Origin: Minisyncoccota bacterium
GTDB lineage: Bacteria > Patescibacteriota > Minisyncoccia > Phycocordibacterales > JABAAK01
Length of the DNA stretch: 64,000 nucleotides
Reading direction: 5' to 3'
Assembly (NCBI GenBank): GCA_965222235.1
Contig: OZ244939.1
Span: forward strand, 400,107 to 464,106
Shown here: in pieces, positions 28,320 through 64,000 of the stretch
How the letters are laid out: every line of letters begins with the position of its first letter
How positions within the stretch are numbered: position 1 is the stretch's first letter
Notes under the pieces: model-generated
Seen by the model: only the letters and a program-made list of their open reading frames with translations
Databases searched by the model: none
Told to the model about the DNA's origin: nothing
Program-made: the position numbers and the translations under genes

Positions 28320-28321
28320 AT

Positions 28322-31800: not shown

Positions 31801-31864
31801 ATTGACGAAGAAAACACATTTTCCTATACTATGAACCACATACACTCAGAGACAGTATGCAAAT

Positions 31865-32785: not shown

Positions 32786-32792
32786 AGGGAAG

Positions 32793-46793: not shown

Positions 46794-46974
46794 ATACTCC
46801 CATTTTTCCTTAAAACATACTAAATAAGCAAGGGAGGATTATATGAAAAAGGTTAGAAAAATGGTACACTGAATAAAGTGTAATGTGTATAACTTGTTGA
46901 TTACTAGAGGTGGGCGACCATTGCATCAATGTGAGGTATCCTGTATAATCAAAAATCCTACTTAACTATATTTT
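46794..46974. promoter_or_regulatory. Divergent dnaA/rpmH promoter region with a further DnaA-box-like site (candidate oriC part).
   Basis: TGTGTATAA at 46884-46892; the AT-rich context matches the classical rpmH-dnaA origin arrangement. Confidence 0.4.
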
Positions 46975-47097
46975 ATGAAAATAAAAGTTAAAAAAAGAAT
47001 GAAAAAGCACGGTTTTTTAGCGCGCAGCAAAACCCCGGGCGGTCGTCGCGTGCTTGCCCGCCGAAGATCTAAAGGAAGGTCTAAGATAAGTGTATAA
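46975..47097 (+). CDS. rpmH: 50S ribosomal protein L34.
   Basis: Hand translation gives [40 protein letters not shown]. This gene is not in the ORF track because it is under 60 aa. Confidence 0.85.
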
Positions 47098-47114
47098 GGA
47101 TTTTTCACAGCAAT

Positions 47115-47411
47115 ATGAAAACATCACTACACCATCAGGAGATAGCAGAAATTCTAAAAAAAGGAAAAAGAGTAGTGGCTGAGGGTATTGTTGTTGTGCA
47201 CAAAGGAAAGAAGGGGGGGGTGAAGCGGTATGCAATTATTATTTCAAAGAAAAAAATAAAGAAAAACTCCGATCGTAATAAGGTTCGGAGAATAATCAGG
47301 GAGGTGCTCCGAGAAATTGACCCCCAATATTCCCCGATGGTTATCTTGTGTACCAAAACACACTATAATTACAAAACAGTGAAAGATGCGCTCTCCGTCA
47401 TTAAACTGTAG
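47115..47411 (+). CDS. rnpA: RNase P protein component.
   Basis: 98 aa, basic. Its position between rpmH and yidC and its motifs (KKGKRV, KKIKKNSDRNKVRRIIRE) fit RnpA. Confidence 0.7.
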   Translation: MKTSLHHQEIAEILKKGKRVVAEGIVVVHKGKKGGVKRYAIIISKKKIKKNSDRNKVRRIIREVLREIDPQYSPMVILCTKTHYNYKTVKDALSVIKL

Positions 47412-47425
47412 TATAATTTATAAAT

Positions 47426-48124
47426 ATGGAATTTTTCTTTACTGTGTTCTACCAGCCGATCATTAATCTGCTTTTTTGGGGCATAGATTTAATACATACC
47501 CACAGCCTCGCTTTCGGTATATTGGTTTTGGTTGTTGTGGTAAAGGTTTTAATTCTTCCGCTTTCAGTCAAAAACATAAAAATTCAGATACGGATAAAAT
47601 CAATATCTGATGATCTGAAAAATATACGGAACAATATAAAGGATAAGAAAGAACAGGCAGAAAAAACAATTGAACTTTACAAAAAAGCGGGTATAAATCC
47701 AATAACCCCCATATTTCTTCTTCTCCTCCAAATTCCACTGTTTATAACAATGTTTTTTGTTATAAGGGATGTCGGAAAAGAAGACTTTTCATTTGATCAT
47801 CTTTATAGTTTTATACCTCAGAATATACCCGACTTTTACTTCCTCTCATTCAATTTAACCGATTCAGGGAGTATATCTATGTCTGTATTGGTTGGGGTGA
47901 CACAGTATATTCTTATGTACTACTCACAAAAAAATGTGGCGGCTGATATGATCTCGGGAACACAAAAGATCTTTTTCTTGGTCCTGCTCCCGGTCTTTGC
48001 CGGGGCGGTCTCCTTCTTTTTTGTAACGGCGGTCGGTCTGTATTGGTTTGTTAATAATATCATCTCTATACTCCAGGAAGTGACTGTGCTAAAATTCCTT
48101 CGGATAAAATGGAACAGACTATAA
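47426..48124 (+). CDS. yidC: Membrane protein insertase YidC/Oxa1, short form.
   Basis: Five-TM-core pattern with ...PLFITMFFVIRD... 232 aa, after rnpA. Confidence 0.8.
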   Translation: MEFFFTVFYQPIINLLFWGIDLIHTHSLAFGILVLVVVVKVLILPLSVKNIKIQIRIKSISDDLKNIRNNIKDKKEQAEKTIELYKKAGINPITPIFLLLLQIPLFITMFFVIRDVGKEDFSFDHLYSFIPQNIPDFYFLSFNLTDSGSISMSVLVGVTQYILMYYSQKNVAADMISGTQKIFFLVLLPVFAGAVSFFFVTAVGLYWFVNNIISILQEVTVLKFLRIKWNRL

Positions 48125-49435
48125 CCGTAACATCCATAGTGATAAGTCATTTTTGTTAACGAAGATGAAAAACTCGCCATCATCACTCACCGTCGGGCGG
48201 ATGATGTCAAAGGCTTCATTTCCTGACAAAAGTTTAATATCATCCTGATCAGGAGACATGATAAGTTTTTTCTCACCGGTTACGGCATCAATTTGTATAA
48301 CAGAATCACTCAGTGTAATATCTCCCTGATACCAGGAATCAGGAAAAACGGTTTCATAGCCGGAAAGGGTGCTTGAGGGCACCGAATTCGGGACCGCACA
48401 CACAAAGACCCCGTTGAATCCGTCACATTTTTCCGGAACGGTGCTGGGCAGGGCTATAGATGTTTTTCTTGATTGGTCCGTAACTAATGTTTTCCCCACA
48501 AAACTACCAGGAACAGATTCATACAGCACAAAGAAACCGGAGGTTGTGTCCACCAGCGCGGATCCGCCGGAAGAGATATCAACAAATCTGTTGATGGGGA
48601 CCTTGCCCGCCGGATCAACCAGATATACATATCCTCTTGCATATTTTGAAATCGGGGTGGAGATGGTGATATAATCATTTCTTCCCCAGCGCGGAAGCCA
48701 GTTGGTAAAATGTGATTCCCACACAATTTCAGTTTTTTCCGGGTTTGAAACATCAACAACAATACCTATAACCCTATCATCAACCTCCCTGATAAAAAAG
48801 AGGTTTGTTTCATTATCTGTCGCAACCCGTATATTATTTTCAAACAACTGGATACCATCATTTCCTCCGACCGGGGCAAACGGAACAAAGGCGGACTTAA
48901 CGGTAAATTCATCCTCCCCACTTTCATATAAAATTAGGGAGGTGTCATTAGAGAATATATACCCCTCAAGAACCTTGGTGAATTCACCCGCGGCGATCAG
49001 GTTCAGGGTGTATGGGGCTGTACGGATACTATACCGGTTTCCCCTACCCTGCTCAATAACCCTTATTTCCCATGAATCCGCATCAGCCCTATCAACACGA
49101 TACCCAGCGGTCGGTCCTTTAAAAAGTCTCACCAATCTCGGCAGTGATTGAAGTGTATCCTCGTTAGGCCGGTTAGGGGCGGTGTATATACGATCATCAC
49201 GTGAGTCGTCAATTTCACCGACATCTTCGGGAAAAGAAAAAATCGGTTGTTCTGTTATATCAATACTCTCAAGACCCAACTGGTCACCAATAAGGGTCTT
49301 TTTGGTGGGATCGGTAAGGGGTCTTTTATCAATATCTCCCCCACTGTCTTTTATAAAGAAAAAATAGAGCAACAAAACAACAAATAAAAAGAACAGAGAG
49401 CCGACGATAAAGAAAACGAAGATGTTTTTACTCAT
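48119..49435 (-). CDS. Membrane-anchored extracytoplasmic hypothetical protein.
   Basis: Trimmed to MSKNIFVFFIVGSLFFLFVVLLL (N-terminal TM helix). About 430 aa with no recognisable domain. Confidence 0.4.
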   Translation of the reverse strand: MSKNIFVFFIVGSLFFLFVVLLLYFFFIKDSGGDIDKRPLTDPTKKTLIGDQLGLESIDITEQPIFSFPEDVGEIDDSRDDRIYTAPNRPNEDTLQSLPRLVRLFKGPTAGYRVDRADADSWEIRVIEQGRGNRYSIRTAPYTLNLIAAGEFTKVLEGYIFSNDTSLILYESGEDEFTVKSAFVPFAPVGGNDGIQLFENNIRVATDNETNLFFIREVDDRVIGIVVDVSNPEKTEIVWESHFTNWLPRWGRNDYITISTPISKYARGYVYLVDPAGKVPINRFVDISSGGSALVDTTSGFFVLYESVPGSFVGKTLVTDQSRKTSIALPSTVPEKCDGFNGVFVCAVPNSVPSSTLSGYETVFPDSWYQGDITLSDSVIQIDAVTGEKKLIMSPDQDDIKLLSGNEAFDIIRPTVSDDGEFFIFVNKNDLSLWMLRL

Positions 49436-49515
49436 AAAGGCAGTATACAAGAAAATCAATCAACCAAATAAACAAGCACAACCAATCCGACATGCTTCAG
49501 TCCGGAATTCACCCA

Positions 49516-50022
49516 TCATCGGGGACCGGAGTCTCTGGGATCGTGGTGGGGATTGGGGGGATCGGAGGGATCGGGGGGCGAGACCCCCGCTGGCGGAGTC
49601 TGCAAAAGCTTGGGATTGAGCAGGTTGGGATTAACAAAATTCAACAGTAAATATGAAAGTAAGAGGAGGGCAACGCCGAAAAAAATGTCAAAAAGTTTCC
49701 CTTTTTTAACCACTATATCACTGACCTTCCCGACCAATTGCGCATAAATTAATTGTGTCCCGTATATGGCGAGCATAACAACAAGAGCTATTCCGACTAT
49801 TGAGAATAATAGTCGCATAACCAAACTGAGGACTGTTCTAATTTGGCCGATGTTTTCCGTGGGATCAAGACTCAAACTTGAAAGGGAGAAAATGTTTGTC
49901 GCAAACCCGACCGCCTTCTCTGCAGACACACAGAGTGGAAAAAGTAGTATAAAAAATATACTACAGATTAATAGTAAAATTATTTTCTTCTTTTTGTAAG
50001 CCATTATGTGTATTTTTCGCAC
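49516..50022 (-). CDS. VirB2/TrbC-like small membrane protein (candidate T4SS pilin).
   Basis: A signal-peptide-like N-terminus ends in ...CVSAEKA, followed by two hydrophobic helices and a Pro-rich tail. It lies in a cluster with a VirB4-like ATPase. Confidence 0.4.
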   Translation of the reverse strand: MRKIHIMAYKKKKIILLLICSIFFILLFPLCVSAEKAVGFATNIFSLSSLSLDPTENIGQIRTVLSLVMRLLFSIVGIALVVMLAIYGTQLIYAQLVGKVSDIVVKKGKLFDIFFGVALLLLSYLLLNFVNPNLLNPKLLQTPPAGVSPPDPSDPPNPHHDPRDSGPR

Positions 50023-50968
50023 GTATTCTTAATAAAACGGAAGAAGATTCCCCCTCCGTGGAAACATCAATTTTTCTCCCCTCCTTTATATGGTTTGTGC
50101 CGTCATTAACAAACCACTTATATTCTATAACATTTTTTTCAAAATCGGGTTTGCTGAAGTAGTACGGGTATACGGAGAAGGTAACGGGCTGTTTAACCAA
50201 GGATATTTTTTGCGGAATAACGAGGTTGGAGAGGAGTCCGTGTAAGAGGGTATGAGGGTATGTAAGCAGCCGTGGCTCAACAACGGGAATATTGATAATT
50301 TTTTCAAGCGAGACAGTGTTGTCGTTTATGAGAGTTGCCTGAGCGCGGACGAAAATAAAATTATTAAGCAGCGTCCCTCCCTCTTCATATACAATACTAC
50401 TCACCCCCGGACCCCGTTCATCATGATACCGTGACTCAATTTCCCAAACGAAGGAAAAATCCTTTTCGGTGTATGTGTCGCCGTTCCGGTCAATATATTG
50501 TATTTTTGCCGAAATGCGTATCGGCGTTTGAGGCCCCGCCAACTTGTACCCCCGATACAGGGTGGGAGCCACCGAATCACCCTCCCAAAGAATATCAAAA
50601 ACCGCCGGTCTGACCCATCGGACATCCTGGGTATATCGCCTTTGATTGTGTATATCAAAATAGATAATATTGGCAACAATCTGTTTCACCGAACTATCAC
50701 TAATTTCAGTCATACTAAGCTTGTTGGCAAACTCTTCCCTTTCCTCCCCGTTCACATACCACCTTACTGATCGTATGCCTGTTGTTGAGGCATCGCCCGA
50801 TTCCACAAATATCTGAATTTTTTCTCCGGGTGACGGATGCTCCTTGTCTGCATATAGAGAATATGCGTTTGATTCTCCGTACTGTGCAAAAACAGAAACG
50901 GACAGGAAAACAGACAAAAGAACAGCAGGCACACCAAAAACCATAACAATACTATTGTTCATATACAC
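49961..50968 (-). CDS. Secreted hypothetical protein.
   Basis: N-terminal signal/TM segment; 335 aa with no recognisable family. Confidence 0.4.
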   Translation of the reverse strand: MYMNNSIVMVFGVPAVLLSVFLSVSVFAQYGESNAYSLYADKEHPSPGEKIQIFVESGDASTTGIRSVRWYVNGEEREEFANKLSMTEISDSSVKQIVANIIYFDIHNQRRYTQDVRWVRPAVFDILWEGDSVAPTLYRGYKLAGPQTPIRISAKIQYIDRNGDTYTEKDFSFVWEIESRYHDERGPGVSSIVYEEGGTLLNNFIFVRAQATLINDNTVSLEKIINIPVVEPRLLTYPHTLLHGLLSNLVIPQKISLVKQPVTFSVYPYYFSKPDFEKNVIEYKWFVNDGTNHIKEGRKIDVSTEGESSSVLLRIRAKNTHNGLQKEENNFTINL

Positions 50969-51000
50969 AGTATACGATATATTTCAGGATAGATCATATA

Positions 51001-51426
51001 TCAACCACCACCGGCCAGCAGCCGTACTCTTCTTCGCCACTTGAGATAAAACAGAAAACCCACCCACCCGGTGAAGAAACTGAAAAAAGGAATGGATTCC
51101 ATGATAAAGACACCGGCGGCAACCAGGCAGTCGTAAACAGTGTAAGATCCTTTCGGAGATGCAAGCACAATAGCATAGAATATGCAAAGAACAATGAGGG
51201 CCAAAAATAACTGCGCACCGAAAATAATAATAAGAACCCCGAAGATGTCTTCCGCAAATCCGAAAGGATCCCCGAAAAACTCAAGAACGGTCGCGACCGC
51301 TCCGACCACCACAGCGGGCTTCAATGCGAGTCCTTGTATGGTGGTGAGAAAAACCCCGATGAATTCAGCAATTGCGACAACACCCGAGAAAAGAATGACG
51401 GATAGAGATGGAAAGGCTTTGATCAT
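51001..51426 (-). CDS. Small polytopic membrane protein.
   Basis: 141 aa with about 4 TM helices. It overlaps the VirB4 start by 4 nt, which implies translational coupling. Confidence 0.4.
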   Translation of the reverse strand: MIKAFPSLSVILFSGVVAIAEFIGVFLTTIQGLALKPAVVVGAVATVLEFFGDPFGFAEDIFGVLIIIFGAQLFLALIVLCIFYAIVLASPKGSYTVYDCLVAAGVFIMESIPFFSFFTGWVGFLFYLKWRRRVRLLAGGG

Positions 51427-53207
51427 GAGGTATTTTCTTTTTCGGCGAGCAGTTGCGACGGATCGGATGTGATAATTTTATCCTCAGTAAAGGATGCAAC
51501 GATCTTTATCCCCACCCGTTTGAGTCCGGCTATAAATAACCCTTCGCCGACAGATGCCTCCAACAGAAGATACTTCTCACTATCGGTCAGGTTAAACACC
51601 TCCTGCACAAAGCTAATAGATGTTGCGGACTGTCTCAGAAGAAGGATAAGCGACGCATTATTCAGTATCGGTTTCCCATACTGTGAGCGGAGAAAGTCGC
51701 TCACATCCTGCGTTATCGTTCCAACCCCCAGATAATATTTTCTTCCCCGCTTCACCAGGCCGAAAAGGAAAGAGGCAGTGTCATCTGACTGCATCATCAC
51801 CCATGCCTCGTCAACCACAAGAAGCCGTTTCTTCAGACTTTTCTTCACGTTATTCCAGATAAATCGCGTAATAATATACATAGCCGCAGGTTTCAGTTCT
51901 TCCTCCATGTCACGGATGGAGAACACCACAAACTGTTTATCCATATCAACATTAGTAGGTTGGTTAATGAAGCCGGACCACGAGCCGTCCGTATATCTGC
52001 TCAGGCGCTCCGCAAGCTGCTCCCCTCCCTCAATACCCGCAAGAACCAGAGAAAAATCAGACATAAGGGGCGGCTCCATAGAATCAAAGTTGCCCGCCTC
52101 CGTTATATCTTTCAGTGCGTATGTTTCCCGCAGAGCCCTGTCAGTAATTGATTCTTCTTCCTGGGTCAGTCCGCCGAGCAATACACGGAATAAGCCGATA
52201 AGATTAATCAGCGCACTCCGCAGAACGTCAGCCGGATTTTCATCATCTCCGACCGGAGGCAGGTCAAAAGGATTGATATGATTTTTAGAATTCAGAGAAA
52301 CATTAAAATGTCTACCTCCGGTTGCCTGCGCGAGGCGTTCAAATTCCCGTTCCGGGTCTATGACGATAACATTTATACCAATCATGAGAGATCGCAGCAC
52401 CTCGAGTTTCATCGCATATGATTTCCCCGCACCGGAGGTGGCAAAGGTGACGGAATTATAGTTCGGGAGGGAGAAGCGATCAAAGAGAATGAGTGACGCA
52501 TTGTGCTGGTTCACGCCGTACAGAATACCCCGATCGGCGGACAGGTCAAAGGAAACAAACGGAAACAGGCTTGAAAGCGGGTCAGAATTCAGTTTGGTAT
52601 GTATGTCAAGCAGATCAGTGCCGAACGGACTCGTACTCTTAAACCCCTGTTCCTGTTGAAAAATAGTCGGCTTGATGAAGATGAGACGCCCCTCAAGGAT
52701 GGAACGGATGTCCTTTTCAACATCGTTTATCTCATCCATACTCTCGCCGTAAATAGTGATATATACACCAACCTCAAACAATTTTTCCGTCGCCTGCTGT
52801 ATGTTGTCCCGCAGCAGCTCGAGGTCCTGATGGGCGGTGTCAAGTTTGGGATCACGCACCATCCCCTTCCGTTCCCGTTCAATGATTTGACTTTCCACCT
52901 GGGCGACCTTTCTTCGGAACGTCCGAAGAACGTCCTTAGATTCCATGGGATGTATGAATATGGAAATATCAAACTCCCTACTGATGTTTATAATCGGAGA
53001 GAACCAACCCTCGTTCAGGAAGCGTGGGTATGAAACAATAGCAAAAGAGCGGACCAACTTGTTCCCCAGTGATATATTCTTTGAAGTTACTTTAATCGCG
53101 GCCGGCGCAATGACATCACGGAGTCCGACACTTGCCTGGGCAAAACTTTCTTTCGGAATAAAGTCCATTATGTCGCCCTTTTTTTTATTTTTACTGAAAA
53201 TTCCCAT
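51423..53207 (-). CDS. VirB4/TrbE/CagE-family T4SS ATPase.
   Basis: It has the Walker A TSGAGKSYAMK and the Walker B LLVVDEAWVMM. 594 aa. Confidence 0.8.
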   Translation of the reverse strand: MGIFSKNKKKGDIMDFIPKESFAQASVGLRDVIAPAAIKVTSKNISLGNKLVRSFAIVSYPRFLNEGWFSPIINISREFDISIFIHPMESKDVLRTFRRKVAQVESQIIERERKGMVRDPKLDTAHQDLELLRDNIQQATEKLFEVGVYITIYGESMDEINDVEKDIRSILEGRLIFIKPTIFQQEQGFKSTSPFGTDLLDIHTKLNSDPLSSLFPFVSFDLSADRGILYGVNQHNASLILFDRFSLPNYNSVTFATSGAGKSYAMKLEVLRSLMIGINVIVIDPEREFERLAQATGGRHFNVSLNSKNHINPFDLPPVGDDENPADVLRSALINLIGLFRVLLGGLTQEEESITDRALRETYALKDITEAGNFDSMEPPLMSDFSLVLAGIEGGEQLAERLSRYTDGSWSGFINQPTNVDMDKQFVVFSIRDMEEELKPAAMYIITRFIWNNVKKSLKKRLLVVDEAWVMMQSDDTASFLFGLVKRGRKYYLGVGTITQDVSDFLRSQYGKPILNNASLILLLRQSATSISFVQEVFNLTDSEKYLLLEASVGEGLFIAGLKRVGIKIVASFTEDKIITSDPSQLLAEKENTS

Positions 53208-53219
53208 GGTTCTATTGTA

Positions 53220-53825
53220 TTATATCGACGGCGGTGTCTGGGTGTCTCCGGGATTGAATGTCTGATACAACAACTCCGTCACCTCCTCGGTTCCCAGCTG
53301 AACCGCCCGAAGACCGAGGGATCGGATATTGTTCTGTATAAAGGAGACGCGCTGCAGGAGCTGGCTTTGGTTTTCCTCAAACCTCTTCTCTTTTACATCA
53401 TCTCCTTTCTTAAAGAAGGGTAGTTTGCTGCCGCCCATATCCAGCGGCGAATAGTTAACAATAATGAAGAACTGCTTTGTCATTATCTCATTTTTCTCAG
53501 TGAAGTCATGGATAAAATTAATATACTCCCTGGTCTGGAGACGCAGCAGTTCATTCTGCTGCCCTTCGTACATAGTGTTTAAAAATTCAAGATACGGCTT
53601 GATATTGAGCCGCCGTGACTGTATGAGTACCTGAATGCCGACTTCAAGAGAGTTAAGAAGCGACTGGAACTGAAAAAGGATGGCCTCCCTCTCAACCTGC
53701 GACTTTAGGCTGAAGTTGAGTGATGAAACGAGTATAATCGCGCACAGGACACCATCATCGCGAATAACAATACCTTCGCGAATTTCCCGGACCGGAACAA
53801 ATGATTGTGTCGTGTTCTTGGTCAT
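53220..53825 (-). CDS. Hypothetical protein, possibly a detached N-terminal domain of the VirB4-like ATPase.
   Basis: It is in the same reading frame as the ATPase. A single TAA at 53220-53222 and 4 sense codons separate it from the ATPase ATG. The N-terminus VPVREIREGIVIRDDGVLCAIIL resembles VirB4 N-termini. Confidence 0.4.
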   Translation of the reverse strand: MTKNTTQSFVPVREIREGIVIRDDGVLCAIILVSSLNFSLKSQVEREAILFQFQSLLNSLEVGIQVLIQSRRLNIKPYLEFLNTMYEGQQNELLRLQTREYINFIHDFTEKNEIMTKQFFIIVNYSPLDMGGSKLPFFKKGDDVKEKRFEENQSQLLQRVSFIQNNIRSLGLRAVQLGTEEVTELLYQTFNPGDTQTPPSI

Positions 53826-54259
53826 ATGCGTACATCAACCCCGTCATCAGAAGGAGAATCATCAAATATCAGGTTTGCGTTCAGGTCGCCGATTCTTTTC
53901 AAATCAGGGTCGCCGGCCTTTTTCACCTCTCCGTCCGCAGACGATTTCTGACGCCCCCTCCTTTCAACATATGTTTCACCCTTCTCCTGTTTCCATATAT
54001 ACATTTTTTTATTCATAAAGAAACGGATGGTTGCCTGAAAAATAGTGACAAACGACTGATTATTGAGTGAAAAGAAGGAAAGAAGAAGTGCGAAAAGAAC
54101 GATAGGCACGCCGAATAATATCGCGACGATTGTGCCGGTAAAAAGAAAAAGAAAAACAAAGAGACCGGCGGCACCGCAGAGATACAACAACTGCTTGAAA
54201 TCAAGACCGAACAATATCTTATCAGTAATATCTATATTTTGTGGAACCTGAAAGCGCAT
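53822..54259 (-). CDS. VirB3-like small membrane protein.
   Basis: 145 aa with a hydrophobic hairpin followed by a charged cytoplasmic tail. It overlaps the downstream ORF by 4 nt. Confidence 0.4.
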   Translation of the reverse strand: MRFQVPQNIDITDKILFGLDFKQLLYLCGAAGLFVFLFLFTGTIVAILFGVPIVLFALLLSFFSLNNQSFVTIFQATIRFFMNKKMYIWKQEKGETYVERRGRQKSSADGEVKKAGDPDLKRIGDLNANLIFDDSPSDDGVDVRI

Positions 54260-54306
54260 ATACCTACAGTATACCGCAGAAAACTCGGGATGATTTTAGA
54301 TATACA

Positions 54307-56325
54307 TCAAGTATTTCGGTCCCCATCAGGATTTTCATTGTCAGGTCTTTCATCCCCATCAGGGCGTTCGTTCCCGACCTCCTCACTCTCATTAGGCTGC
54401 CTCGGTTCGTTTTCTTCAGCCCGGTTTCCACGCAGCGCATCAAGTTTTTCTTGGGCCATTCTTCTAACCTCCCGATTGGTCAATTCTGTATTATTGAGAA
54501 TGGTTTCAAGCCGCTCCGCATTGGTGTCAGGGTGGTCAAGAATCTTTCTGATAATTTGGGTATTGGTGCCTTTGAGGAGTGCCTTGAATACATCATCAGG
54601 CATGTTCGTCATGTCGGCGACGGTGAGACGGGCCTGGAGATCTTCCTCCTGGTTTCCGGCATAACGCAGAAGGGTGTCCCGATCATTTTCTTCAAGGGCC
54701 TTTCTGATAACGCGGACCTTTTCATCTTTAGAGAGTTTCGGAGGCTCCTTCCCGGTGGATAGTTTGTTTAATGTGTCAACAGCTGCACCTCGAATTCTTT
54801 GGTTGTTATAAATATCATTACCGGTCTGATTGGTGCGGTTAATAATATTCTGAAGCGTTCCTTCGGAAATGTTGGGATTGTTAATAGCCGCCAAAAGCGT
54901 CTTCTGATCATTATTGCTCTCCGCAATACGGTCGATTTCATTATCAGTGATGTTGGTGTTACTCACCAACGACTGGTGCAGATCCGGGTTGCTGAAAAGC
55001 CTGTTAAACTGCCCCTGGGTAAGTGTGGATCGCTTGGAAACCGCCATCTGCTCTTCAAAAGTGCCGCTGTTAACGGTTCGTGCGGTCTGCCTCTCGTCCG
55101 CGCGCCTTTTCCTGGACTCAGGGGTGCTGAATTCAGCGCGCTTGCCTCTCCAGGCATCTCTCGCCCCGCCTGCGACTCCGACGGCGGTATCCCGCAAGTT
55201 TCGTCCCAACCTGGTTCTCGGCAACCTGCCCGAGAACCTGTCAGTTACAGGTCTGGCGGCGGTGCGAGCCGTGCCGAGAGGGAGCCTTCCGCGGTTGAGA
55301 GTGACGATACGGTCAACGGCCTGTTTCATGTATTTTCCGATCTGGAACTTGCCCACCCTGATGCCCTGCACCATCTGACCGATCTTAAAAATACCCAGAA
55401 CAAGGGCGAAGGTGGCCAGGATGAGCTGGACCAATATCTCCATTCCGTTGGAGCCCATGGATTGGGGTAGATTTTCCGGCTTGGGAATCTGATTCAGCAC
55501 CGCGGAGTATATGGCCATAAGGAAGGCCAGTCCGAACATTAGTACAACAGGATTTATCAGTGTAGTCACTAACTTGTCTTTCCATAAGGAGAAAAGAGCG
55601 TCAATTTTTCCCATAGATCCGCTGATACTCACAAAGAAAGCAAGGACGGCAAGAGGAGAAGTGACAACAAGAATGATGGCGATGATAAATCGCTCAATGA
55701 GAATGATGGAGAGATAAATAAAACCGAGAAACATGAAGAAATAACTAACGGCGAACACGAGACCGTACAGAACATTCCATGTGCTGTCATTACTTACAAA
55801 ACGGGTGCCGTATCCGTCAAACAGTGAGCCGGAAAGCGTTTGTGTGTCCAGTATATTAAAGGCGACCAGGAAGAAGGCGTGCGAGATGTCAAAAAGTGCG
55901 AGCACGAAGAAAGCACTGAAGTTAACAACAACCGCGGCTGCCAGTAGCCCGAAAAGAATTTTTCTTTTGAAAAAGAAATCTCCGAAAATGGTGAGAAAGG
56001 CCGTAACGATAAAGAGAACCACAATGAAAATATTGGCGATATCCCTCATCAGCTGCCACAGCGATTTCAGCTCGCCCGCGACACCGCTACCTTTCCAATA
56101 TGAAGCAAAGTCAAAGATGGTGAATTGGATAACCAGGAAAAACAAACTTTTACCCAGGGAGAACAGCCCGTGGGCAAGGTCCCGGAGCCATCCGATCATG
56201 GTGGTCATCACCGTGCCGACAATCGAAGTTTCTGCCAGCACCTCGGGGGACATTAAAAGGAGCACCGCCGCAAAGAGAAAGAATAAGTTTCGGTGTGAGG
56301 AGATTTTTTTAATCAGTGTTGTCAT
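54307..56325 (-). CDS. Large polytopic membrane protein (VirB6/TrbL-like) with a hydrophilic C-terminal region.
   Basis: At least 8 TM helices, then a charged repeat-like tail (..NPDGDRNT). It lies in a cluster with the VirB4-like ATPase. Confidence 0.45.
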   Translation of the reverse strand: MTTLIKKISSHRNLFFLFAAVLLLMSPEVLAETSIVGTVMTTMIGWLRDLAHGLFSLGKSLFFLVIQFTIFDFASYWKGSGVAGELKSLWQLMRDIANIFIVVLFIVTAFLTIFGDFFFKRKILFGLLAAAVVVNFSAFFVLALFDISHAFFLVAFNILDTQTLSGSLFDGYGTRFVSNDSTWNVLYGLVFAVSYFFMFLGFIYLSIILIERFIIAIILVVTSPLAVLAFFVSISGSMGKIDALFSLWKDKLVTTLINPVVLMFGLAFLMAIYSAVLNQIPKPENLPQSMGSNGMEILVQLILATFALVLGIFKIGQMVQGIRVGKFQIGKYMKQAVDRIVTLNRGRLPLGTARTAARPVTDRFSGRLPRTRLGRNLRDTAVGVAGGARDAWRGKRAEFSTPESRKRRADERQTARTVNSGTFEEQMAVSKRSTLTQGQFNRLFSNPDLHQSLVSNTNITDNEIDRIAESNNDQKTLLAAINNPNISEGTLQNIINRTNQTGNDIYNNQRIRGAAVDTLNKLSTGKEPPKLSKDEKVRVIRKALEENDRDTLLRYAGNQEEDLQARLTVADMTNMPDDVFKALLKGTNTQIIRKILDHPDTNAERLETILNNTELTNREVRRMAQEKLDALRGNRAEENEPRQPNESEEVGNERPDGDERPDNENPDGDRNT

Positions 56326-56342
56326 ATATACATATTAGGATA

Positions 56343-59300
56343 TTACAGCGGGGTTATAAAGGACTCAACGACCTCACGGTACCTCCTCTCCACCTTTTTC
56401 TGGAAAGAATCCCGGTATCGGCGCTCCGCCTCGGTCGCACTGAGCGCTCCCCAGTGTTCCGTTGAACTTTGCGGATCGCCTTCACCGACGAATATTTCAC
56501 CGAACCGGCGGTATTTTTCAGAATCTCTCTGTCGCTGTCCGTAAGAGCTGATGTCGGTGGAGAAACTGGTTAAGAGTGTCTGCGCTGATGCTGTGGGGAG
56601 ACGCACCAATTTTGACTCATGTCCGAAAACATAGAGGGCATATATGATTTTTTCAGGACTCTTCGGCAGGTTGCGGACGCTTGTGTTGACAAAGTTTGTA
56701 AACTCATCAAGCGTACAGTCCATCTCAACATATCTTCCGCTGATGACACCGCCGTCTCCGGAGTGTACCTCAACCGCGCAGGCACCCCTGAGCAGATTAA
56801 TGTGTTCCGATCCGGCGGTGTAAATATGAACGCTTCTATTGCGGAGATTTTCTATCGTAGCATCCCGCACCACCGCCCACTTGGAGACCCCTCTGGCCAG
56901 CCGCGAAGAAAACCGTTCATCCTGAAGTATGGCGTTTCTGTAGTTCTGTTTTGCCACAGATGTGCTGTCCCCGCGATATTCCTCCTCTTCACCGACGAGT
57001 TGTATATACGCCGCCATCGTCGCTTCATAAATTTCCCGCAGTAGTCGTGCAGTCTCGGCAGAGTCGGATTCAAGCGAATTTTTCATTCGGGTTGTCGCCC
57101 CGTTCAGCGCCGCCCGGTCATCCGGATAAATATATGCGGTCACATTCCTTCGCCGTCTGTATCCGCACCCACCAGCGTCATTGTAATAATCACAGAACGT
57201 CAGGGTTCTCGGCCTCTGAATGGCGCGCAGAACGTTGGTAATAGTGTTTCCGTTCGGATATGCCTCAAGAAACGGATAATCCGCTGCCCTGAACCCGCCC
57301 GAGTATGTTTTGTAGTACACCCCATCTTCGCCGGGCTGTCGGTATTCGATCGGAGGCGTGTTCTCGGTATGAAGATTGGTGTTGATATATGACAGGAGTT
57401 TGATACTGTCCCGTATGCGAATTTCAGCGGATAATATATTAATGTATGAACCGGCGGTTGAAGAAGTAAGGAGTGTGTCAACCCACCAGTTACCACCCCG
57501 GGAATATGTGGGAATACCTTCACTGACCCGATGAATCTCAGTTCGTGATGATATCCAACTGCTGCTGAGGCCTTCTTTCAGCACCCTCTTGACAAGACCG
57601 ACCACAGTTGCGTCCACAACGGCCTGGATAATCTCCCCGAGACCGTCCGCATCGTGGACGGATTGAATTTGTAAATCAATAAAACTCTCCTTGCGCCGTG
57701 CTATGGTAGTGGCACCGCTTTTTACACTGACGGGACACACAATTTCCGCGCCGTCGTCATCGTGACACTCTTCAGTGTATGAAGCGATTGCCGTCGGATC
57801 TTCACCACTGCTCAATAGTTCCCGCTGCGACGGCTCTTCGCCGATACTCCTTTCAAGAATTTCCCGCTGCAGTCGGTCTTGCTCGCTCAACTGGGTTAAC
57901 TCATTGCCGTCTTCTACAATTGAACGAATCTCCCGTGTTATCGTATCGGACACGCGGTCTAATTTTTCATTTGCGTCTATTTGTGACACGCCGGCGAGAT
58001 CAAAAGGATTGATGGTGATAGCACCGTTGCCGGGTCTGACACCCCTGCGGCCCCGCAAGGCTGGATCAAGCTGGTTTGATCCTACAAAAGCCTGTTGTTC
58101 AATAACATACGGACCCTTTCTCGCGACAATATGAACACGGGCATTCTTTTTGGTTCTCCCGTGTATTGTTCCTTTTGTGTCCGTGTTGCTCCGAATATTT
58201 ACACGCTTAACCTGAGAAGTCTCAGTGCCGTCGTCAAGTTGCTCTGTTATAGTGACCTCCCACACACCGACAACCGCGTTATTGGTGACGGCATTTCCTC
58301 CCCCACTTCCGCTGGCAAGAGCGAAATCAACTGTTGCCGAATAGAAGGCGGCTTCGGAACCGAGGATAATCGGATCATCTTCTATAAAATCAATAGGATT
58401 ACCCACAAAGTCTACAGGATTGTCTATAAAATCATCAATATTATTTATAAAATCACTCAGTGTACAGCGTGGCGGTTCAAGACCTATCCGACGATACCGT
58501 AACTGTAAGAGACTTGAAATATCAATTTTAATTCCGTCTATATCACACAAAAACCCCAACCCACCACTTTCCAGTGCCCGACCGACCGACCTGTCGGCAA
58601 AGTCTTTCCAGAATTGGGACGGATTGTCAATAAAGTACGGCTGGCCGTGAAAACCGGTCAATGCCCAATCTATATACGAGGAAGCCAAATCAAGAGCGGC
58701 CTGTTTGGCGACTCCATATGCAATAACATCAATCCCACAGTCCTTGAGCGTATCTGAGCCGTCAATGTCATTGACCGCATGGGGAAGGAGTGTGGTCAGG
58801 AGTGTCCCCGCAATACAGGCGGCAGTGTTGCCGACAACGGCAAGCGCCAAACTTTGCAGTATGCTTCCCAAATCAAAATCCTCATCCTCAAATTCCCCTT
58901 CGGGAATGACAACAGTCCCAGGAGGACCTTGCGGTATGAGAGGGGGTGGCGGGTCAGGATCGTTAGGATCCGGCGGGGTAATAGGGCCCGACGGTATAGT
59001 AGGGCCCGGAGGAATATCAATGTTAATGGCGGGCGGTGTTATAAAAGGAGTCGGCCGCACTGTCGGGGGGGTGATGCCGGGAAATGAAGGTCTTCTCGGA
59101 GTGACAAAGGGATTGTTGCCGCTGCCCAGGTACAGGACACTTCCGGGATTTTGCGACACGTCGCCGAACGGGCGTATCACCGTATTATACGCCCCCGTTA
59201 TTCCCCGAAACCTGACCGGATCACTGGCGGGCCCCTGGGGCCCGTATAGGGCGACGAGATCACGGTACGCAGAGTCAATCTCCCCCCGCGTCGCCCCGGG

Positions 59301-59894
59301 ATTGAGCCCTAGTGTGGTGTAGGCATTGTCAATCAATGCGTTATACGCCCCCGTTATTCCCCGGAACCTGACCGGATCACTGGCGGCCCCCTGGGGCCCG
59401 TATAGGGCGACGAGATCACGGTACGCAGAGTCAATCTCCCCCCGCGTCGCCCCGGGATTGAGCCCTAGTGTGGTGTAGGCATTGTCAATCAATGCGTTAT
59501 ACGCCCCCGTTATTCCCCGGAACCTGACCGGATCACTGGCGGCCCCCTGGGGCCCGTATAGGGCGACGAGATCACGGTACGCAGAGTCAATCTCCCCCCG
59601 CGTCGCCCCGGGATTGAGCCCCAGTGTGGTGTAGGCCCGCCGAATCACATCGTCATCCCGAACCACATCGTCGTCTGTGACCGGCAGCTCTCTGAGGATA
59701 AGAGAATCCCTGTCTCTCGCACGAGGATCGTTGGGGTTAATGATTTCGGCAACATCCTTTTTTTCCAGTGTTGCAATATCTTCCTTCTCGCCGTAAAAAA
59801 ATAAAAAGAAAACAATAAGGGCGAGAATGAGAACAACAGAACCGACAATGATGGAAATCAACAAAGCCCGACCCGCATTATGCAAGTTTTTCAT
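56343..59894 (-). CDS. Giant (1183 aa) membrane-anchored surface protein with three tandem 53-aa repeats that resemble a degenerate J-domain.
   Basis: N-terminal TM helix. The repeat AYTTLGLNPGATRGEIDSAYRDLVALYGPQGAASDPVRFRGITGAYNALIDN occurs 3 times. A proline-rich linker follows. Confidence 0.6.
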   Translation of the reverse strand: MKNLHNAGRALLISIIVGSVVLILALIVFFLFFYGEKEDIATLEKKDVAEIINPNDPRARDRDSLILRELPVTDDDVVRDDDVIRRAYTTLGLNPGATRGEIDSAYRDLVALYGPQGAASDPVRFRGITGAYNALIDNAYTTLGLNPGATRGEIDSAYRDLVALYGPQGAASDPVRFRGITGAYNALIDNAYTTLGLNPGATRGEIDSAYRDLVALYGPQGPASDPVRFRGITGAYNTVIRPFGDVSQNPGSVLYLGSGNNPFVTPRRPSFPGITPPTVRPTPFITPPAINIDIPPGPTIPSGPITPPDPNDPDPPPPLIPQGPPGTVVIPEGEFEDEDFDLGSILQSLALAVVGNTAACIAGTLLTTLLPHAVNDIDGSDTLKDCGIDVIAYGVAKQAALDLASSYIDWALTGFHGQPYFIDNPSQFWKDFADRSVGRALESGGLGFLCDIDGIKIDISSLLQLRYRRIGLEPPRCTLSDFINNIDDFIDNPVDFVGNPIDFIEDDPIILGSEAAFYSATVDFALASGSGGGNAVTNNAVVGVWEVTITEQLDDGTETSQVKRVNIRSNTDTKGTIHGRTKKNARVHIVARKGPYVIEQQAFVGSNQLDPALRGRRGVRPGNGAITINPFDLAGVSQIDANEKLDRVSDTITREIRSIVEDGNELTQLSEQDRLQREILERSIGEEPSQRELLSSGEDPTAIASYTEECHDDDGAEIVCPVSVKSGATTIARRKESFIDLQIQSVHDADGLGEIIQAVVDATVVGLVKRVLKEGLSSSWISSRTEIHRVSEGIPTYSRGGNWWVDTLLTSSTAGSYINILSAEIRIRDSIKLLSYINTNLHTENTPPIEYRQPGEDGVYYKTYSGGFRAADYPFLEAYPNGNTITNVLRAIQRPRTLTFCDYYNDAGGCGYRRRRNVTAYIYPDDRAALNGATTRMKNSLESDSAETARLLREIYEATMAAYIQLVGEEEEYRGDSTSVAKQNYRNAILQDERFSSRLARGVSKWAVVRDATIENLRNRSVHIYTAGSEHINLLRGACAVEVHSGDGGVISGRYVEMDCTLDEFTNFVNTSVRNLPKSPEKIIYALYVFGHESKLVRLPTASAQTLLTSFSTDISSYGQRQRDSEKYRRFGEIFVGEGDPQSSTEHWGALSATEAERRYRDSFQKKVERRYREVVESFITPL
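59170..59645. repeat. Three tandem, near-identical 159-bp DNA repeats inside the giant gene.
   Basis: A unit of about 159 bp recurs at about 59175, 59339 and 59498. Confidence 0.8.
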
Positions 59895-59929
59895 ACAGTC
59901 AGTATACCCCGCATTTCAAGGGCAAACGA

Positions 59930-60802
59930 TTATTCCAGAAGTGTAATAACCCGGGAAACATGACTCAAAAACTTGTTCTGTAGCGTTGTTTGGGAAACAT
60001 TCTCCACATTTTCAAACAACCTTCCGGTGCTCAAAAGTTTGAGGGTATAGAAATAATTTTCCGCGCTTGGATCAGATAAGGCGAGAGAAAGTGCTTCACA
60101 TCGGTAGATAAGTGTTTCCAGGACGAGATAGTATGAATCATATACATCTTCCGGGACATCTCGGGGGATGTGGGAAAGCGTATAATCGCATGCAGCCCGC
60201 ATTTTTCTCGCGTCGGGCAGGATGCCGGTGTTTTTTGCGAACACCTCAAGGGTCAGTGTATCAACGGATTTTCGCTCATCGGAGAACCGTTTCAGGGCTC
60301 CCAGGAATCCGTTAAGCACACCCCGCCTGGAAGCGGCGGTATCTATATTCAGGCGCACAGGAGGCAGCCCCCGCTTTTCAATTTGGTTGATGAAGTATTC
60401 CACGGACACGGTGATAAATTGTTCCCGCTCTTCCGGCGTAACGGTAACGGTGCCTTTAGTGTCAAGCAAAAATCGTCTCACAATTTCTTCCGTGAATTCC
60501 CCCGGACCTCCGTACAACAAATCATCAACAGAGATGTTTTTTGCCTGAGCGATATCTTTCTGGTACGGAAAAGAGGATGCATTTAAAATATCGGATCCGA
60601 CGACCTCTTCCTGCCAGTCGGGAACCCCGTCACCGTCGCTGTCAATATCAGATCGATCCGAATAAGACTTCAGGATAAGGACACCTCCCCTGTTCTCCGG
60701 TGCCGCGAACAGTAAAAGAGCGGCGACAACACCCGCAAAGATAAGGAGAAGAATACAAAAAATTTTGTATCGCGCGAAGATTTTTTGTACGTATGACATC
60801 AT
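59930..60802 (-). CDS. Secreted hypothetical protein with an acidic DxDxDG calcium-binding-like motif.
   Basis: N-terminal TM/signal segment, then DIDSDGDGVPDWQEE. 290 aa. Confidence 0.45.
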   Translation of the reverse strand: MMSYVQKIFARYKIFCILLLIFAGVVAALLLFAAPENRGGVLILKSYSDRSDIDSDGDGVPDWQEEVVGSDILNASSFPYQKDIAQAKNISVDDLLYGGPGEFTEEIVRRFLLDTKGTVTVTPEEREQFITVSVEYFINQIEKRGLPPVRLNIDTAASRRGVLNGFLGALKRFSDERKSVDTLTLEVFAKNTGILPDARKMRAACDYTLSHIPRDVPEDVYDSYYLVLETLIYRCEALSLALSDPSAENYFYTLKLLSTGRLFENVENVSQTTLQNKFLSHVSRVITLLE

Positions 60803-61226: not shown

Positions 61227-61997
61227 CTATAATTCCGCTGCCGCCAGCCACACAGAAAACGGCACATTCTCGGCCCGTGATGTCGTATCAACACCCTGCG
61301 AAACAAGAAAATCGCGGACACGTGGTCGGGAAGAAAATTTTTTCAGCACGACTTTCCGTTTTTCATGGAAGGCGGTGTGAATGATATCAAAAAACATCTC
61401 CTGAACTGAAGAATCAGGTATCCGTATATCGGTAACGGATATAAGGGCCGAATCAACGGCCGGCACCGGAGTAAATGCCGTACGGGGAATGGTCGTGATA
61501 TAGTGTGGGTGTCCGAACAGCCGAACGGAAAGCGAAAGGAGAGATTCCTTGGAATCGTTCCGTCCGGTGATGCGTTCCGCCACCTCCTTTTGTACCACCA
61601 GTGCCATACCGCTTGGTGGTCGTGTGCGGGTGAGCATATCCCTGATGAGGGTGCCGGTAAGGTAATACGGGATATTGGCGATGACAACATACGGCATGTC
61701 GCCGACAAGTTCAGCCCACTCACAGTCCCGAATATCGCCGTTGTGGAGTATCAGCGTACCGTCGGCAATGTCGCGTGAAAATGTCTCCCGCAGCCTTTCA
61801 AACAGAGCCGCATCTTTTTCTATCCCAATTACCCTTCTCCCTTTCTGCAGAAGATATTCGGTCAGCGCGCCTTTGCCGGGACCGACCTCAACAATAGCAG
61901 TGCCTTCAGGAACCGGCAGCGCGTCAACAACTGTGCGTATGGTCGAACGTGATCGGAGGAAATGTTGTCCGAGAGGTTTTTTCATATATACTGCCAT
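61227..61997 (-). CDS. rsmA: 16S rRNA (adenine1518-N6/adenine1519-N6)-dimethyltransferase.
   Basis: MKKPLGQHFLRS... with the SAM motif VVEVGPGKGALT. 256 aa. Confidence 0.85.
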   Translation of the reverse strand: MAVYMKKPLGQHFLRSRSTIRTVVDALPVPEGTAIVEVGPGKGALTEYLLQKGRRVIGIEKDAALFERLRETFSRDIADGTLILHNGDIRDCEWAELVGDMPYVVIANIPYYLTGTLIRDMLTRTRPPSGMALVVQKEVAERITGRNDSKESLLSLSVRLFGHPHYITTIPRTAFTPVPAVDSALISVTDIRIPDSSVQEMFFDIIHTAFHEKRKVVLKKFSSRPRVRDFLVSQGVDTTSRAENVPFSVWLAAAEL

Positions 61998-62006: not shown

Positions 62007-63884
62007 TCACCACAGAATATCCCCCCCGTCATTCTTTCCGGCAGATCGAGACTTCTCAAACAGGTGTTCGGGTATATCATTCAGGAAGGACGACGGACGC
62101 ATTGATTTATATGAGCCGAACATGCCGCGTCTTTGCGCAAAGGAAAAATACAGACGATCCTTGGCGCGCGTCATGGCGACGTAGCACAACCGTCGCTCTT
62201 CCTCCCTATCACGCAAAGCATCTTCATCATACAGAAACGGGAACAGTCCTTCTTCCATGCCGGTAATAAAAACATGTGAAAATTCCAGCCCTTTGGCGGC
62301 ATGAACGGTCATCAGTCGTACCCCGTCCTTCTTTTCGGTGCGCAGAGTATCCTGGTCACTACTCAGGGCGACCTCGGTAAGCAGACGGTCTGTGCCGTCA
62401 GTACCGGAGAGATTGGAAAAACGGTCGGCGAATGTGATGAGTTCGTACACCTCAAGCATGCGATCTTCGGGATTGTCATATGACGCAATAAGATAGTCCT
62501 TGTATGAGAGAAGATCAGTCAGTTCGCGCAATACATGGCTGACCGTGTGCTTCGCGGCGCAATGCCGGATTTCCGCTATATCCGAACGCAGCTTTGCAAC
62601 GACCGTCGCGCCGCGTGCCGACAGCATGTGTTCCTCCCCGGAAAAAATTTTATCCAGTGTTCGCGCACCAATGCCCCGCCGCGGTATACCGGCCGCCCGC
62701 CTAAAGGCGTCCTCAGACACCGGATTCTGAACCAGGATGAGATAGGTGAGCAAATCTTTAATCTCAGCGCGGTCAAAGAATCTTACCCCCAGCATGGTAT
62801 ACGGCAGGTGATCCGCTATCATCGCGGTTTCCAGAGCCCGCGACTGAAAGTTGGTCCGGAACAAAACAGCGATGTCGCTGTACGGCACACCGCCCGCCCG
62901 CAGCTGTATAATTTCACGGGCGATGCATGCGGCTTCGTCCTCCTGGTCAACGGCGCGAATACAGGCGATCGGGGGTCCCTCATATCGGGTGCTGATAAGA
63001 TGCTTATCCTGTCGCAGGACATTTTTTTCAATAACGGCATTGGCGGCGGCGAGTATGGTGGCGCTTGACCGGTAGTTCTGCACAAGGAGCACCGTTGCCG
63101 CGGGCGCGTACCGGTCGGCAAAATCAAGCATGTTGTCCACATCCGCGCCGCGCCATGAATAAATGGTCTGGTCCGTGTCGCCGACGGCAACAATGTTGGT
63201 CTGCGGACCCTTCAGAAGAGTGATGAGGCGGTTCTGCACCCCATCGGTATCCTGAAATTCGTCAATGAGAAGGTAGGCATAGCGGGACCGGACCTGATCG
63301 CGCACCCGACCGTCCCGTTCCAACATGGCGACCGCCTTGATGATAAGGTCATCAAAATCAAGGGCTTTTTCCTCTTCCATAGCGGCTGAATACAGCGGCA
63401 GCAGGCGGTCAGCCGCGACTGCTATGTCACTATCCACGGCATCCGTGCGTTCGGTTTTTAACCGACCGACGGCATGCTGCATGACCCGGGGAGTGTAGTC
63501 AGTTATACCCACCTGTTTCATGCACCGTTTAATGATCCGTTTGCAGTCATTTCGGTCGAAGATAATAAAATGTTCGGGAACGCTGCCGGCATCGGAAAAT
63601 GTGCGCAGTAGTGAAACACAGAATGAATGAAAGGTGCCGACAAAGAGGAGGTGTGCCGCGGAACAGTGAGAGTGCACCCGCTCACGCATCTCATCGGCGG
63701 CCTTGTTGGTGAATGTCAGGGCGAGTATGGAGTCGGCACGAACCCCGCTTCCGAGCAGGTGAACGATCTTTTCCACAAGAACATGTGTTTTCCCGGTACC
63801 GGCTCCGGCAACAATGAGCAGTGAAGAATCTTTTGTTTCCACGGCTTTTTTCTGCTCATTGTTTAATACGGGACTCATCGTCAT
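62007..63884 (-). CDS. UvrD/PcrA/Rep-family SF1 DNA helicase.
   Basis: Trimmed to MTMSPVLNNEQKKAV. It has the Walker A AGAGTGKT, motif II DEFQDT, and C-terminal motifs VHAAKGLEF and TRAK. Confidence 0.85.
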   Translation of the reverse strand: MTMSPVLNNEQKKAVETKDSSLLIVAGAGTGKTHVLVEKIVHLLGSGVRADSILALTFTNKAADEMRERVHSHCSAAHLLFVGTFHSFCVSLLRTFSDAGSVPEHFIIFDRNDCKRIIKRCMKQVGITDYTPRVMQHAVGRLKTERTDAVDSDIAVAADRLLPLYSAAMEEEKALDFDDLIIKAVAMLERDGRVRDQVRSRYAYLLIDEFQDTDGVQNRLITLLKGPQTNIVAVGDTDQTIYSWRGADVDNMLDFADRYAPAATVLLVQNYRSSATILAAANAVIEKNVLRQDKHLISTRYEGPPIACIRAVDQEDEAACIAREIIQLRAGGVPYSDIAVLFRTNFQSRALETAMIADHLPYTMLGVRFFDRAEIKDLLTYLILVQNPVSEDAFRRAAGIPRRGIGARTLDKIFSGEEHMLSARGATVVAKLRSDIAEIRHCAAKHTVSHVLRELTDLLSYKDYLIASYDNPEDRMLEVYELITFADRFSNLSGTDGTDRLLTEVALSSDQDTLRTEKKDGVRLMTVHAAKGLEFSHVFITGMEEGLFPFLYDEDALRDREEERRLCYVAMTRAKDRLYFSFAQRRGMFGSYKSMRPSSFLNDIPEHLFEKSRSAGKNDGGDILW

Positions 63885-64000
63885 AGTATATACCAAGCAC
63901 TTCAGCATGTTACTTGACAACAGGCGGGAAAAAAAGGATATAATGCGGAGTATACAACACCATGAAACGCTCTTCAAAAAAAGAGGGTGCCGATGCTATA

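Follow-up and report, generated by a model that had tools for sequence, protein, structure and literature searches.

A Patescibacteria-type type IV secretion gene cluster near dnaA in a Minisyncoccota genome

The window analyzed here, a 64-kb (64,000-nucleotide) stretch of the ~641-kb genome of a Minisyncoccota bacterium (contig OZ244939.1, positions 400,107 to 464,106), carries at 49516-60802 a gene cluster that is very probably a chromosomally fixed type IV secretion system (T4SS) of the Patescibacteria type. As read from the genes, the system would derive from the MPF-FATA class of monoderm bacteria and belong to a Paceibacteria/Kaiserbacteria-like genome. Four core parts are supported: VirB4, PrgI/VirB3, a VirB2-like pilin, and a VirB6-like protein. 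The predicted gene content is that of an inner-membrane VirB3-VirB4-VirB6 module with a VirB2-type pilin and envelope proteins, lacking DNA-processing functions. All statements about absent genes apply to the window. The locus is a typical Paceibacteria example of an already described system, not a new kind of system.

A large part of bacterial diversity belongs to the Patescibacteria, which live attached to other cells, and a T4SS has proved essential in the one species tested. The analysis gives a fully parsed list of genes together with the evidence on each, the recognition that a split VirB4 is the normal state, and a correction of the strand of the cluster relative to dnaA. Three leads go beyond the 2025 survey of these systems (Quiñonero-Coronel et al. 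2025; PMC12102498): transcription toward oriC, conserved accessory envelope genes, and a widespread helical domain fused to J-like domains without the HPD tripeptide.

In the survey, the VirB4 proteins of Patescibacteria form a monophyletic clade within MPF-FATA; TrsD, PrgI/VirB3, VirB6, and VirB2-like pilins adjoin VirB4, relaxases are nearly absent, and genes for the type IV coupling protein (T4CP) are seldom nearby (PMC12102498). In Paceibacteria, the T4SS is reported near dnaA, dnaN, ksgA, rnpA, and rpmH, and a gene-dosage effect is proposed (PMC12102498). The same paper makes no mention of strand or orientation relative to dnaA, an operon, DnaJ, TolB/PD40, calcium motifs, or accessory families. 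The window agrees with the published systems in its MPF-FATA VirB4, the adjacent TrsD, PrgI/VirB3, VirB6, and VirB2-like pilin, the lack of a nearby relaxase, and the Paceibacteria chromosomal position. It differs in having one pilin gene instead of an array, no member of a family (f7) common in relatives, a lineage-specific gene with four transmembrane (TM) segments after VirB4, and triplicated J-like domains; none of these differences is essential.

Gene layout and core components

All sizeable open reading frames (ORFs) at 49516-60802 lie on the minus strand, and the same-strand array extends from 48119 to at least 63977. In the order of transcription, it consists of uvrD/pcrA, ksgA, a doubtful 150-aa ORF, the genes of the 290-aa, 1183-aa, 672-aa, 145-aa, and 201-aa proteins, the 594-aa ATPase gene, and the genes of the 141-aa, 335-aa, 168-aa, and 446-aa proteins (Table 1). 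Intergenic gaps in the array do not exceed 56 nt. Three start/stop overlaps read ATGA: those at 51423-51426 and 53822-53825, which a preliminary description of the window had pointed out, and a third at 60799-60802. The single operon proposed in that description is plausible from the gene spacing taken by itself. The description had also placed the cluster genes on the minus strand and named a VirB4 ATPase, a VirB3-like protein, a VirB2-like pilin candidate, a VirB6-like polytopic protein, and a protein with a calcium motif. The ORF list and the searches presented below bear out all of these, and VirB4 is not the sole component with a significant match.

The 594-aa protein contains the C-terminal two thirds of VirB4. 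It matches the CD1110-family model NF045971 with 358.7 bits (cutoff, 325), and among PDB sequences it matches the VirB4 C-domain (4ag5, E=1e-41) and TrwK (E=2e-6). The NF045971 match assigns the ATPase to the Gram-positive CD1110/MPF-FATA type of VirB4. A scan of 185,579 species genomes, one per GTDB species, found 294 VirB4 relatives, and the locus comparisons rest on the best 80 of these (52-79% identity). All 80 are on Patescibacteria-type contigs, labeled Paceibacterota, Kaiser-, Sung-, Moran-, Azam-, Nomura-, Niyogibacteria, and others; some are labeled otherwise yet show the same synteny.

The N-terminal domain of VirB4 is encoded by its own gene, directly upstream of the ATPase gene. 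The 201-aa product matches NF045975 at positions 100-234 (E=1.7e-12) and TIGR00929 at positions 11-180, and the two proteins together tile the 752 positions of the CD1110 model NF045971, the smaller at 2-122 and the larger at 179-734. The TrsD model NF041427 is matched at positions 13-200 of 201 with 27 bits, below its 200-bit cutoff. The two ORFs are in the same frame and separated by TAA and 12 nt, an arrangement that would also be expected of a decaying system in which VirB4 is a pseudogene broken by an in-frame stop codon. The comparison with relatives makes this extremely improbable. In the 74 related loci with both VirB4 parts, the N-terminal and ATPase parts are separate in every case and fused in none; 51 are out of frame and 23 in frame, the proportion expected by chance. 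Therefore, the in-frame relation in the window is due to chance, and the two-gene VirB4 is the normal state rather than a product of pseudogene formation or recoding. TrsD is known as a separate protein in the pGO1 subclass and is the most abundant T4SS component in Patescibacteria (PMC12102498). The Walker A (GAGKS) and Walker B (LLVVDEAW) motifs are intact, and the other cluster ORFs are long and uninterrupted. A pseudogene or recoding at the TAA is rejected, as the two parts are split in all of these relatives, whatever the frame. The upstream ORF in frame with VirB4 had been singled out before; it is indeed in frame, but it is no oddity, being a separate TrsD-like gene universal in the clade.

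The 145-aa protein matches PF12666 with 33.1 bits, above the gathering score of 27, and PrgI occurs directly upstream in 69/80 loci. The 672-aa protein has about seven TM helices in residues 1-320, followed by a charged helical C-terminal half. The hidden Markov model (HMM) of its positional-ortholog family (f6) matches it with E=8.6e-38. Seven of the 30 members of this family match PF04610 (TrbL/VirB6; best, 3e-8), and the family profile matches R388 TrwI among PDB sequences (E=0.013). When the AF2 model of the window protein was compared by Foldseek with 350,542 PDB chains, the top match was TrwI/VirB6 (8rt9_F, probability 0.99). Together, the positional-ortholog profiles and the predicted fold indirectly identify the 672-aa protein as VirB6-like.

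The 168-aa protein has a signal peptide, two hydrophobic helices, a conserved (I/V)NP(D/N)L motif, and a Pro-rich tail. It is matched by the HMM of its positional-ortholog family (f3) with E=2.3e-21. Among the 24 aligned members of this family, 22 match PF18895 (T4SS_pilin) and three match PF04956 (TrbC/VirB2). The profiles point, again indirectly, to a VirB2-like pilin.

Conservation of the locus and its possible role

The gene order uvrD-ksgA-Ca-motif-large bitopic-VirB6-(f7)-PrgI-TrsD-VirB4-Ig-repeat-pilin-TolB-like / yidC-rnpA / dnaA-dnaN / PBP1 is found again in dozens of Patescibacteria contigs from GTDB. Judged by its sequence context, the T4SS block is chromosomal and kept by vertical descent; it is not a mobile element. 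Several GTDB records with the titles Alphaproteobacteria or Bdellovibrionales (L004, L062, L064, L068, L072, and others) contain the Patescibacteria-type VirB4 block with the same neighbors, which suggests that they are mislabeled or misbinned metagenome-assembled genomes.

VirB4, TrsD, and PrgI are homologous to conjugation components of the pGO1/pCF10/CTn2 type, and mobile DNA is found elsewhere in the window (a serine recombinase, insertion sequence copies, and a low-GC island). These features would suit a remnant or integrated Gram-positive-type conjugative element, either an integrative and conjugative element or a plasmid, with its relaxase and coupling protein outside the window. Such an origin is very improbable. 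The cluster occupies the same site between ksgA/uvrD and yidC/dnaA across many Paceibacteria lineages, its GC content (0.478) equals the window mean, and a flanking integrase, repeats, and tRNA are absent around it. In addition, the published VirB4 tree reflects mostly within-class descent, and relaxases occur in 103 of 3,035 genomes (PMC12102498). On synteny and GC content, a mobile-element origin of the cluster is rejected.

No relaxase, VirD4/TcpA-type coupling protein, or VirB11 was found among the window ORFs of at least 300 aa, in line with what had been noticed before from the letters. The sole other secretion ATPase in this set is of the PilB type. It had been suggested that further parts might lie outside the window. 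However, the block is bounded by ksgA and uvrD upstream and by yidC downstream, and the cluster does not continue past the window end because its upstream genes are housekeeping genes, both here and in the relatives. The earlier suggestion of a non-conjugative function agrees with the published Patescibacteria survey (PMC12102498).

The staphylococcal trs conjugation systems of pGO1/pSK41 (TrsC, TrsD, TrsE), an MPF-FATA subclass, likewise have a separate TrsD of ~200 aa beside the ATPase and a VirB3-like gene upstream, and the window protein aligns with 188/201 positions of the TrsD model. In contrast, the plasmid pGO1 is conjugative and has both a relaxase and a T4CP, neither of which was found in the window, and the TrsD score remains at 27 against 200 bits. 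Conversely, pGO1 has no VirB6 homolog and no VirB2 pilin (PMC12102498), whereas the window has both VirB6 and a pilin. The enterococcal pCF10 Prg/Pcf and clostridial CTn2 (CD1110) conjugation systems share the PrgI-family VirB3, and the window VirB4 is best matched, above cutoff, by the CD1110-family model. Their VirB4 proteins, however, are single polypeptides. The partners of these VirB4 proteins are a relaxase, PcfC as T4CP, PrgK as hydrolase, PrgL/PrgD as VirB8-like proteins, and PrgB as adhesin; no counterpart of any of them was found in the window. Gram-negative VirB/Trw systems (A. tumefaciens VirB, R388 Trw) are similar in VirB2 pilin topology and in VirB6 fold, with TrwI as the top match, and their VirB4 is homologous through TrwK. 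They differ in the VirB7/9/10 outer-membrane core, VirB5, VirB8, VirB11, and VirD4, none of which was detected in the window, and the organism studied here is monoderm.

By analogy with VirB systems, we propose that the VirB4 hexamer would be anchored by PrgI/VirB3 and the TrsD-like domain beneath VirB6, which would form the platform for pilus assembly. VirB4 would then supply the energy to extract the VirB2-like pilin from the membrane and polymerize it into a pilus or tube that crosses the monoderm envelope toward the host cell. Variable surface proteins or ectodomains may mediate contact with the host cell and its recognition, and the machine may serve host-dependent (epibiotic) growth rather than conjugation. 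In the account given by PMC12857230, which cites Wang et al. 2023, a homologous T4SS is essential for the growth of Southlakia epibionticum (ML1, Saccharibacteria) on its host. Reviews describe the role of the T4SS as "completely unknown" and suggest effector delivery or nutrient import (PMC12857230, PMC11665869). Tubular structures that are possibly T4SS pili have been described at a parasite-host interface (bioRxiv 10.64898/2026.06.21.733656).

The main alternative is an importer, that is, a T4SS-derived machine that takes up host nucleic acids or other macromolecules, like H. pylori ComB or archaeal Ced, and feeds an organism unable to make nucleotides. We regard it as unlikely, yet with a real share of the probability. 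Uptake systems of this kind work without a relaxase, and neither a T4CP nor a relaxase lies near the locus. Import is named as a candidate function of the Patescibacteria T4SS in the literature, where comEC is dispensable and the T4SS essential in S. epibionticum (PMC11665869). A 2026 preprint proposes feeding on host RNA with T4SS-like tubes (bioRxiv 10.64898/2026.06.21.733656). The window VirB4 also gives a weak match of 35.7 bits to NF041017, the model of the DNA-import ATPase CedB. This score is far below the cutoff of 700, as is that for CedD (NF053655, 15.4 against 600), and the shared P-loop fold explains both. The cluster in the window holds no nuclease, DNA-binding, or ComEC-like gene, and no evidence of import was found. 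Transport direction is not readable from sequence, and the importer differs from the machine proposed above in cargo and direction only.

Several observations weigh against that machine as the reading of a conserved Patescibacteria-type T4SS. The 168-aa and 672-aa proteins have no Pfam match of their own, so that both calls rest on positional-ortholog profiles, and the structural support for VirB6 comes from a mediocre model (pLDDT 62; Foldseek E=0.15). No VirB8-like or VirB1-like component was recognized, the sole hint being a weak match to the Tse3 muramidase (E=0.017, below cutoff). The window covers 64 of ~641 kb, and the absence of T4CP and relaxase holds for it only. Promoter and terminator scans of the cluster performed no better than on shuffled sequence and are uninformative on the operon. 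Finally, the cluster is rearranged locally in two of the closest relatives, L001 and L002. In L001 (OY764332, the closest complete genome, VirB4 79% identical), the T4SS block is broken, and the pilin gene, the Ig-repeat gene, and dnaA are not nearby. After the T4SS block, the same genome has seven tandem paralogs of a ~232-aa protein at 15602-20530, on the opposite strand.

Accessory envelope proteins

The 1183-aa protein begins with a TM segment, which is followed by three J-like repeats, a Pro-rich linker, a second hydrophobic segment, a helical domain of ~150 aa, and a variable region of ~680 aa. PF00226 (DnaJ) matches three stretches with E=7e-20. Despite this significant match, the HPD tripeptide of J-domain co-chaperones is not present in any of the three repeats, which read YGPQG (GPQ) at the HPD position. 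In orthologs, the J-like unit is present once and reads GPD or GPG at this place. A DnaJ match was also seen in one VirB6-family protein of another genome. Beyond the J-like repeats, nothing informative was found for the 1183-aa protein in Pfam, NCBIfam, PHROGs, or PDB sequences, and a word-based homolog search returned two proteins only, the query and one distant relative.

The helical domain lies at about residues 370-500 (window ~58400-58790); the HMMs of the positional families f12 and f27 match residues 352-492, and jackhmmer also links the domain to these families. In other Paceibacteria, the positional counterpart of the gene encodes it as well. Among 1.84 billion cluster representatives searched, it occurs in more than 1200 protein clusters; the proteins are 150-2200 aa long and usually have the domain right behind an N-terminal anchor. 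The domain has two conserved cysteines, and nothing matching it was found in Pfam, PDB sequences, or a fold search.

The calcium motif proposed earlier is present in the 290-aa protein as a thrombospondin-type-3-like DxDxDGxxD and is conserved in its family (f10), whose HMM matches the protein with E=5e-11. The motif occurs in 25/29 members of f10, in the window protein, and in L003, and within the loci it is almost confined to this family. Whether the 150-aa ORF upstream is a gene at all is doubtful: it remained alone when the 80 loci were clustered, and it has no family match.

Downstream of VirB4, the 141-aa protein has homologs by sequence only in the closest relatives, L001 and L002; in L003 and L004, its place is taken by 4-TM ORFs of comparable length. 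The protein has no family match. This small membrane protein had been described as overlapping the start of VirB4; the overlap exists, but at the VirB4 stop codon. The family of the 335-aa protein is found directly downstream of VirB4 in 50/80 loci. A Pfam scan of the 335-aa protein gave no match, and the family profile gave only weak Ig-type matches in the PDB (Hoc, 0.007; Fabs). A VirB8-like role for this protein was considered and is unsupported, the weak matches being Ig-like and not NTF2-like.

The extent of the cluster given in the preliminary description holds for the genes it listed, but it missed the 446-aa TolB-like gene, which by synteny belongs to the conserved block and is a putative T4SS member only. 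The family profile of this protein matches TolB structures (E=1e-11). PD40 is found in 12/32 family members and PG_binding_1 in 6/32, and the family follows the pilin gene in 45/80 loci. Most relatives encode, between VirB6 and PrgI, a protein of ~220 aa (family f7) that the window lacks.

The dnaA region and other features of the window

Table 1. Features of the cluster and its surroundings (positions in the window)
Feature	Position	Strand	Basis or remark
uvrD/pcrA	62007-63977	-	housekeeping, upstream of cluster
ksgA	61227-61997	-	housekeeping, upstream of cluster
Uncertain 150-aa ORF, probably shorter, C-terminal hydrophobic helix	60799-61251	-	stop overlaps start of 290-aa gene (ATGA)
290-aa membrane-anchored protein, thrombospondin-type-3-like DxDxDGxxD calcium motif (residues 54-62)	59930-60802	-	family f10 HMM
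1183-aa bitopic envelope protein	56343-59894	-	PF00226 DnaJ stretches; families f12, f27
Tandem repeat (unit 156 nt, 2.9 copies, 98% identity) that codes for the three J-like domains	59185-59636		Tandem Repeats Finder
Extended VirB6-like polytopic protein, 672 aa	54307-56325	-	family f6 HMM
PrgI-family (VirB3-like) two-helix membrane protein, 145 aa	53822-54259	-	PF12666; stop overlaps TrsD-like start (ATGA)
TrsD-like protein, 201 aa, VirB4 N-terminal domain as own gene	53220-53825	-	N-termini of VirB4 models, TrsD model
VirB4 ATPase, 594 aa, C-terminal two thirds	51423-53207	-	NF045971, PF19044, PF12846
141-aa protein, four hydrophobic segments	51001-51426	-	start overlaps VirB4 stop codon (ATGA)
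335-aa secreted/anchored protein, three Ig-like repeats (W..DG / Y.W motifs)	49961-50968	-	positional family
VirB2-like T4SS pilin, 168 aa	49516-50022	-	family f3 HMM
446-aa membrane-anchored TolB-like (PD40) beta-propeller	48119-49459	-	last gene of conserved block
yidC	47426-48124	+	PF02096
rnpA	47115-47411	+	sequence read; family f16 conserved at rnpA position
rpmH	46976-47098	+	sequence read
dnaA-rpmH spacer, one TTATACACA box (46884)	46794-46975		candidate half of oriC
dnaA	45432-46793	-	PF00308, PF08299, PF11638; same strand as cluster
dnaA-dnaN spacer, two inverted TTATACACA DnaA-box variants (45361, 45410)	45209-45431		candidate half of oriC
dnaN	44093-45208	-	same strand as cluster

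The cluster had been described as lying on the strand opposite to dnaA and immediately beside the replication origin. The first statement is false, as the minus strand carries dnaA too. The second stands in part: dnaA and a cluster of DnaA boxes are 1.3-2.7 kb away, but rpmH, rnpA, and yidC lie between, separating the cluster from dnaA and converging on its 3' end. An exact-match search of the window for the 9-mer TTATACACA, which differs from the DnaA-box consensus at one position, gave four copies (0.34 expected), three of which flank dnaA. In 25 relatives, TTATNCACA is ~25-fold denser in the flanks of dnaA than elsewhere. Because the boxes flank dnaA and TTATNCACA is enriched at the same place in the relatives, dnaA is the probable site of the origin, which would be 1.3-2.7 kb away from the cluster. 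A 72-aa ORF at 45211-45429, between dnaA and dnaN, overlaps the two inverted TTATACACA boxes and probably represents origin DNA rather than a gene.

Since the cluster is transcribed toward dnaA, converging on yidC, it is probably oriented head-on to the replication fork. This orientation of the array, with uvrD, ksgA, the T4SS genes, and the TolB-like gene pointing toward dnaA, is kept in relatives. When 25 loci were pooled, the GC skew at four-fold sites was -0.066 on the cluster side and -0.001 on the dnaA side of the rpmH/dnaA boundary, a weak signal that is independent of gene strand. The shortness of the DnaA-box clusters and the weakness of the skew, with per-locus estimates of 0.019±0.012 and 0.038±0.025, count against the head-on assignment. 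The raw GC skew of the window was discarded as a locator of oriC; it follows gene orientation and is uninformative.

A further-reaching proposal joins two parts. Paceibacteria would share a fixed accessory envelope module (Ca-motif, large bitopic, Ig-repeat, and TolB-like proteins) that replaces VirB1/5/8 functions, and the conserved head-on transcription of a 13-16 kb array toward oriC would couple T4SS expression to replication or to the cell cycle of these epibionts. We consider this proposal quite unlikely.

On the other side of dnaA, at 38-44 kb, the plus-strand genes PBP1, ruvC, yebC, ruvB, and pilB are likewise directed at dnaA. Of these, pilB (38017-39696, ~6 kb from dnaA) encodes a type IV pilus ATPase of the PilB type with T2SSE and MshEN; ruvB, yebC, and ruvC come next, and no further pilus gene was seen adjoining pilB.

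Further from the cluster, two identical 1148-bp copies at 16753-17900 and 29937-31084 encode a 360-aa HTH_38 protein and, from this domain only, are probably an insertion sequence. A large serine recombinase gene at 23449-25017 overlaps tRNA-Lys (23415-23488). Adjoining it is a low-GC stretch at 26-30 kb (GC 0.35-0.36) that holds an AAA_15/AbiEii-like ATPase gene (28732-29883), and the region 23415-33000 is probably an integrated element. Among housekeeping genes at 6160-7137, on the minus strand, a 325-aa protein is encoded that contains a Peptidase_S74 (endosialidase chaperone) domain, typical of phage tail fibers.

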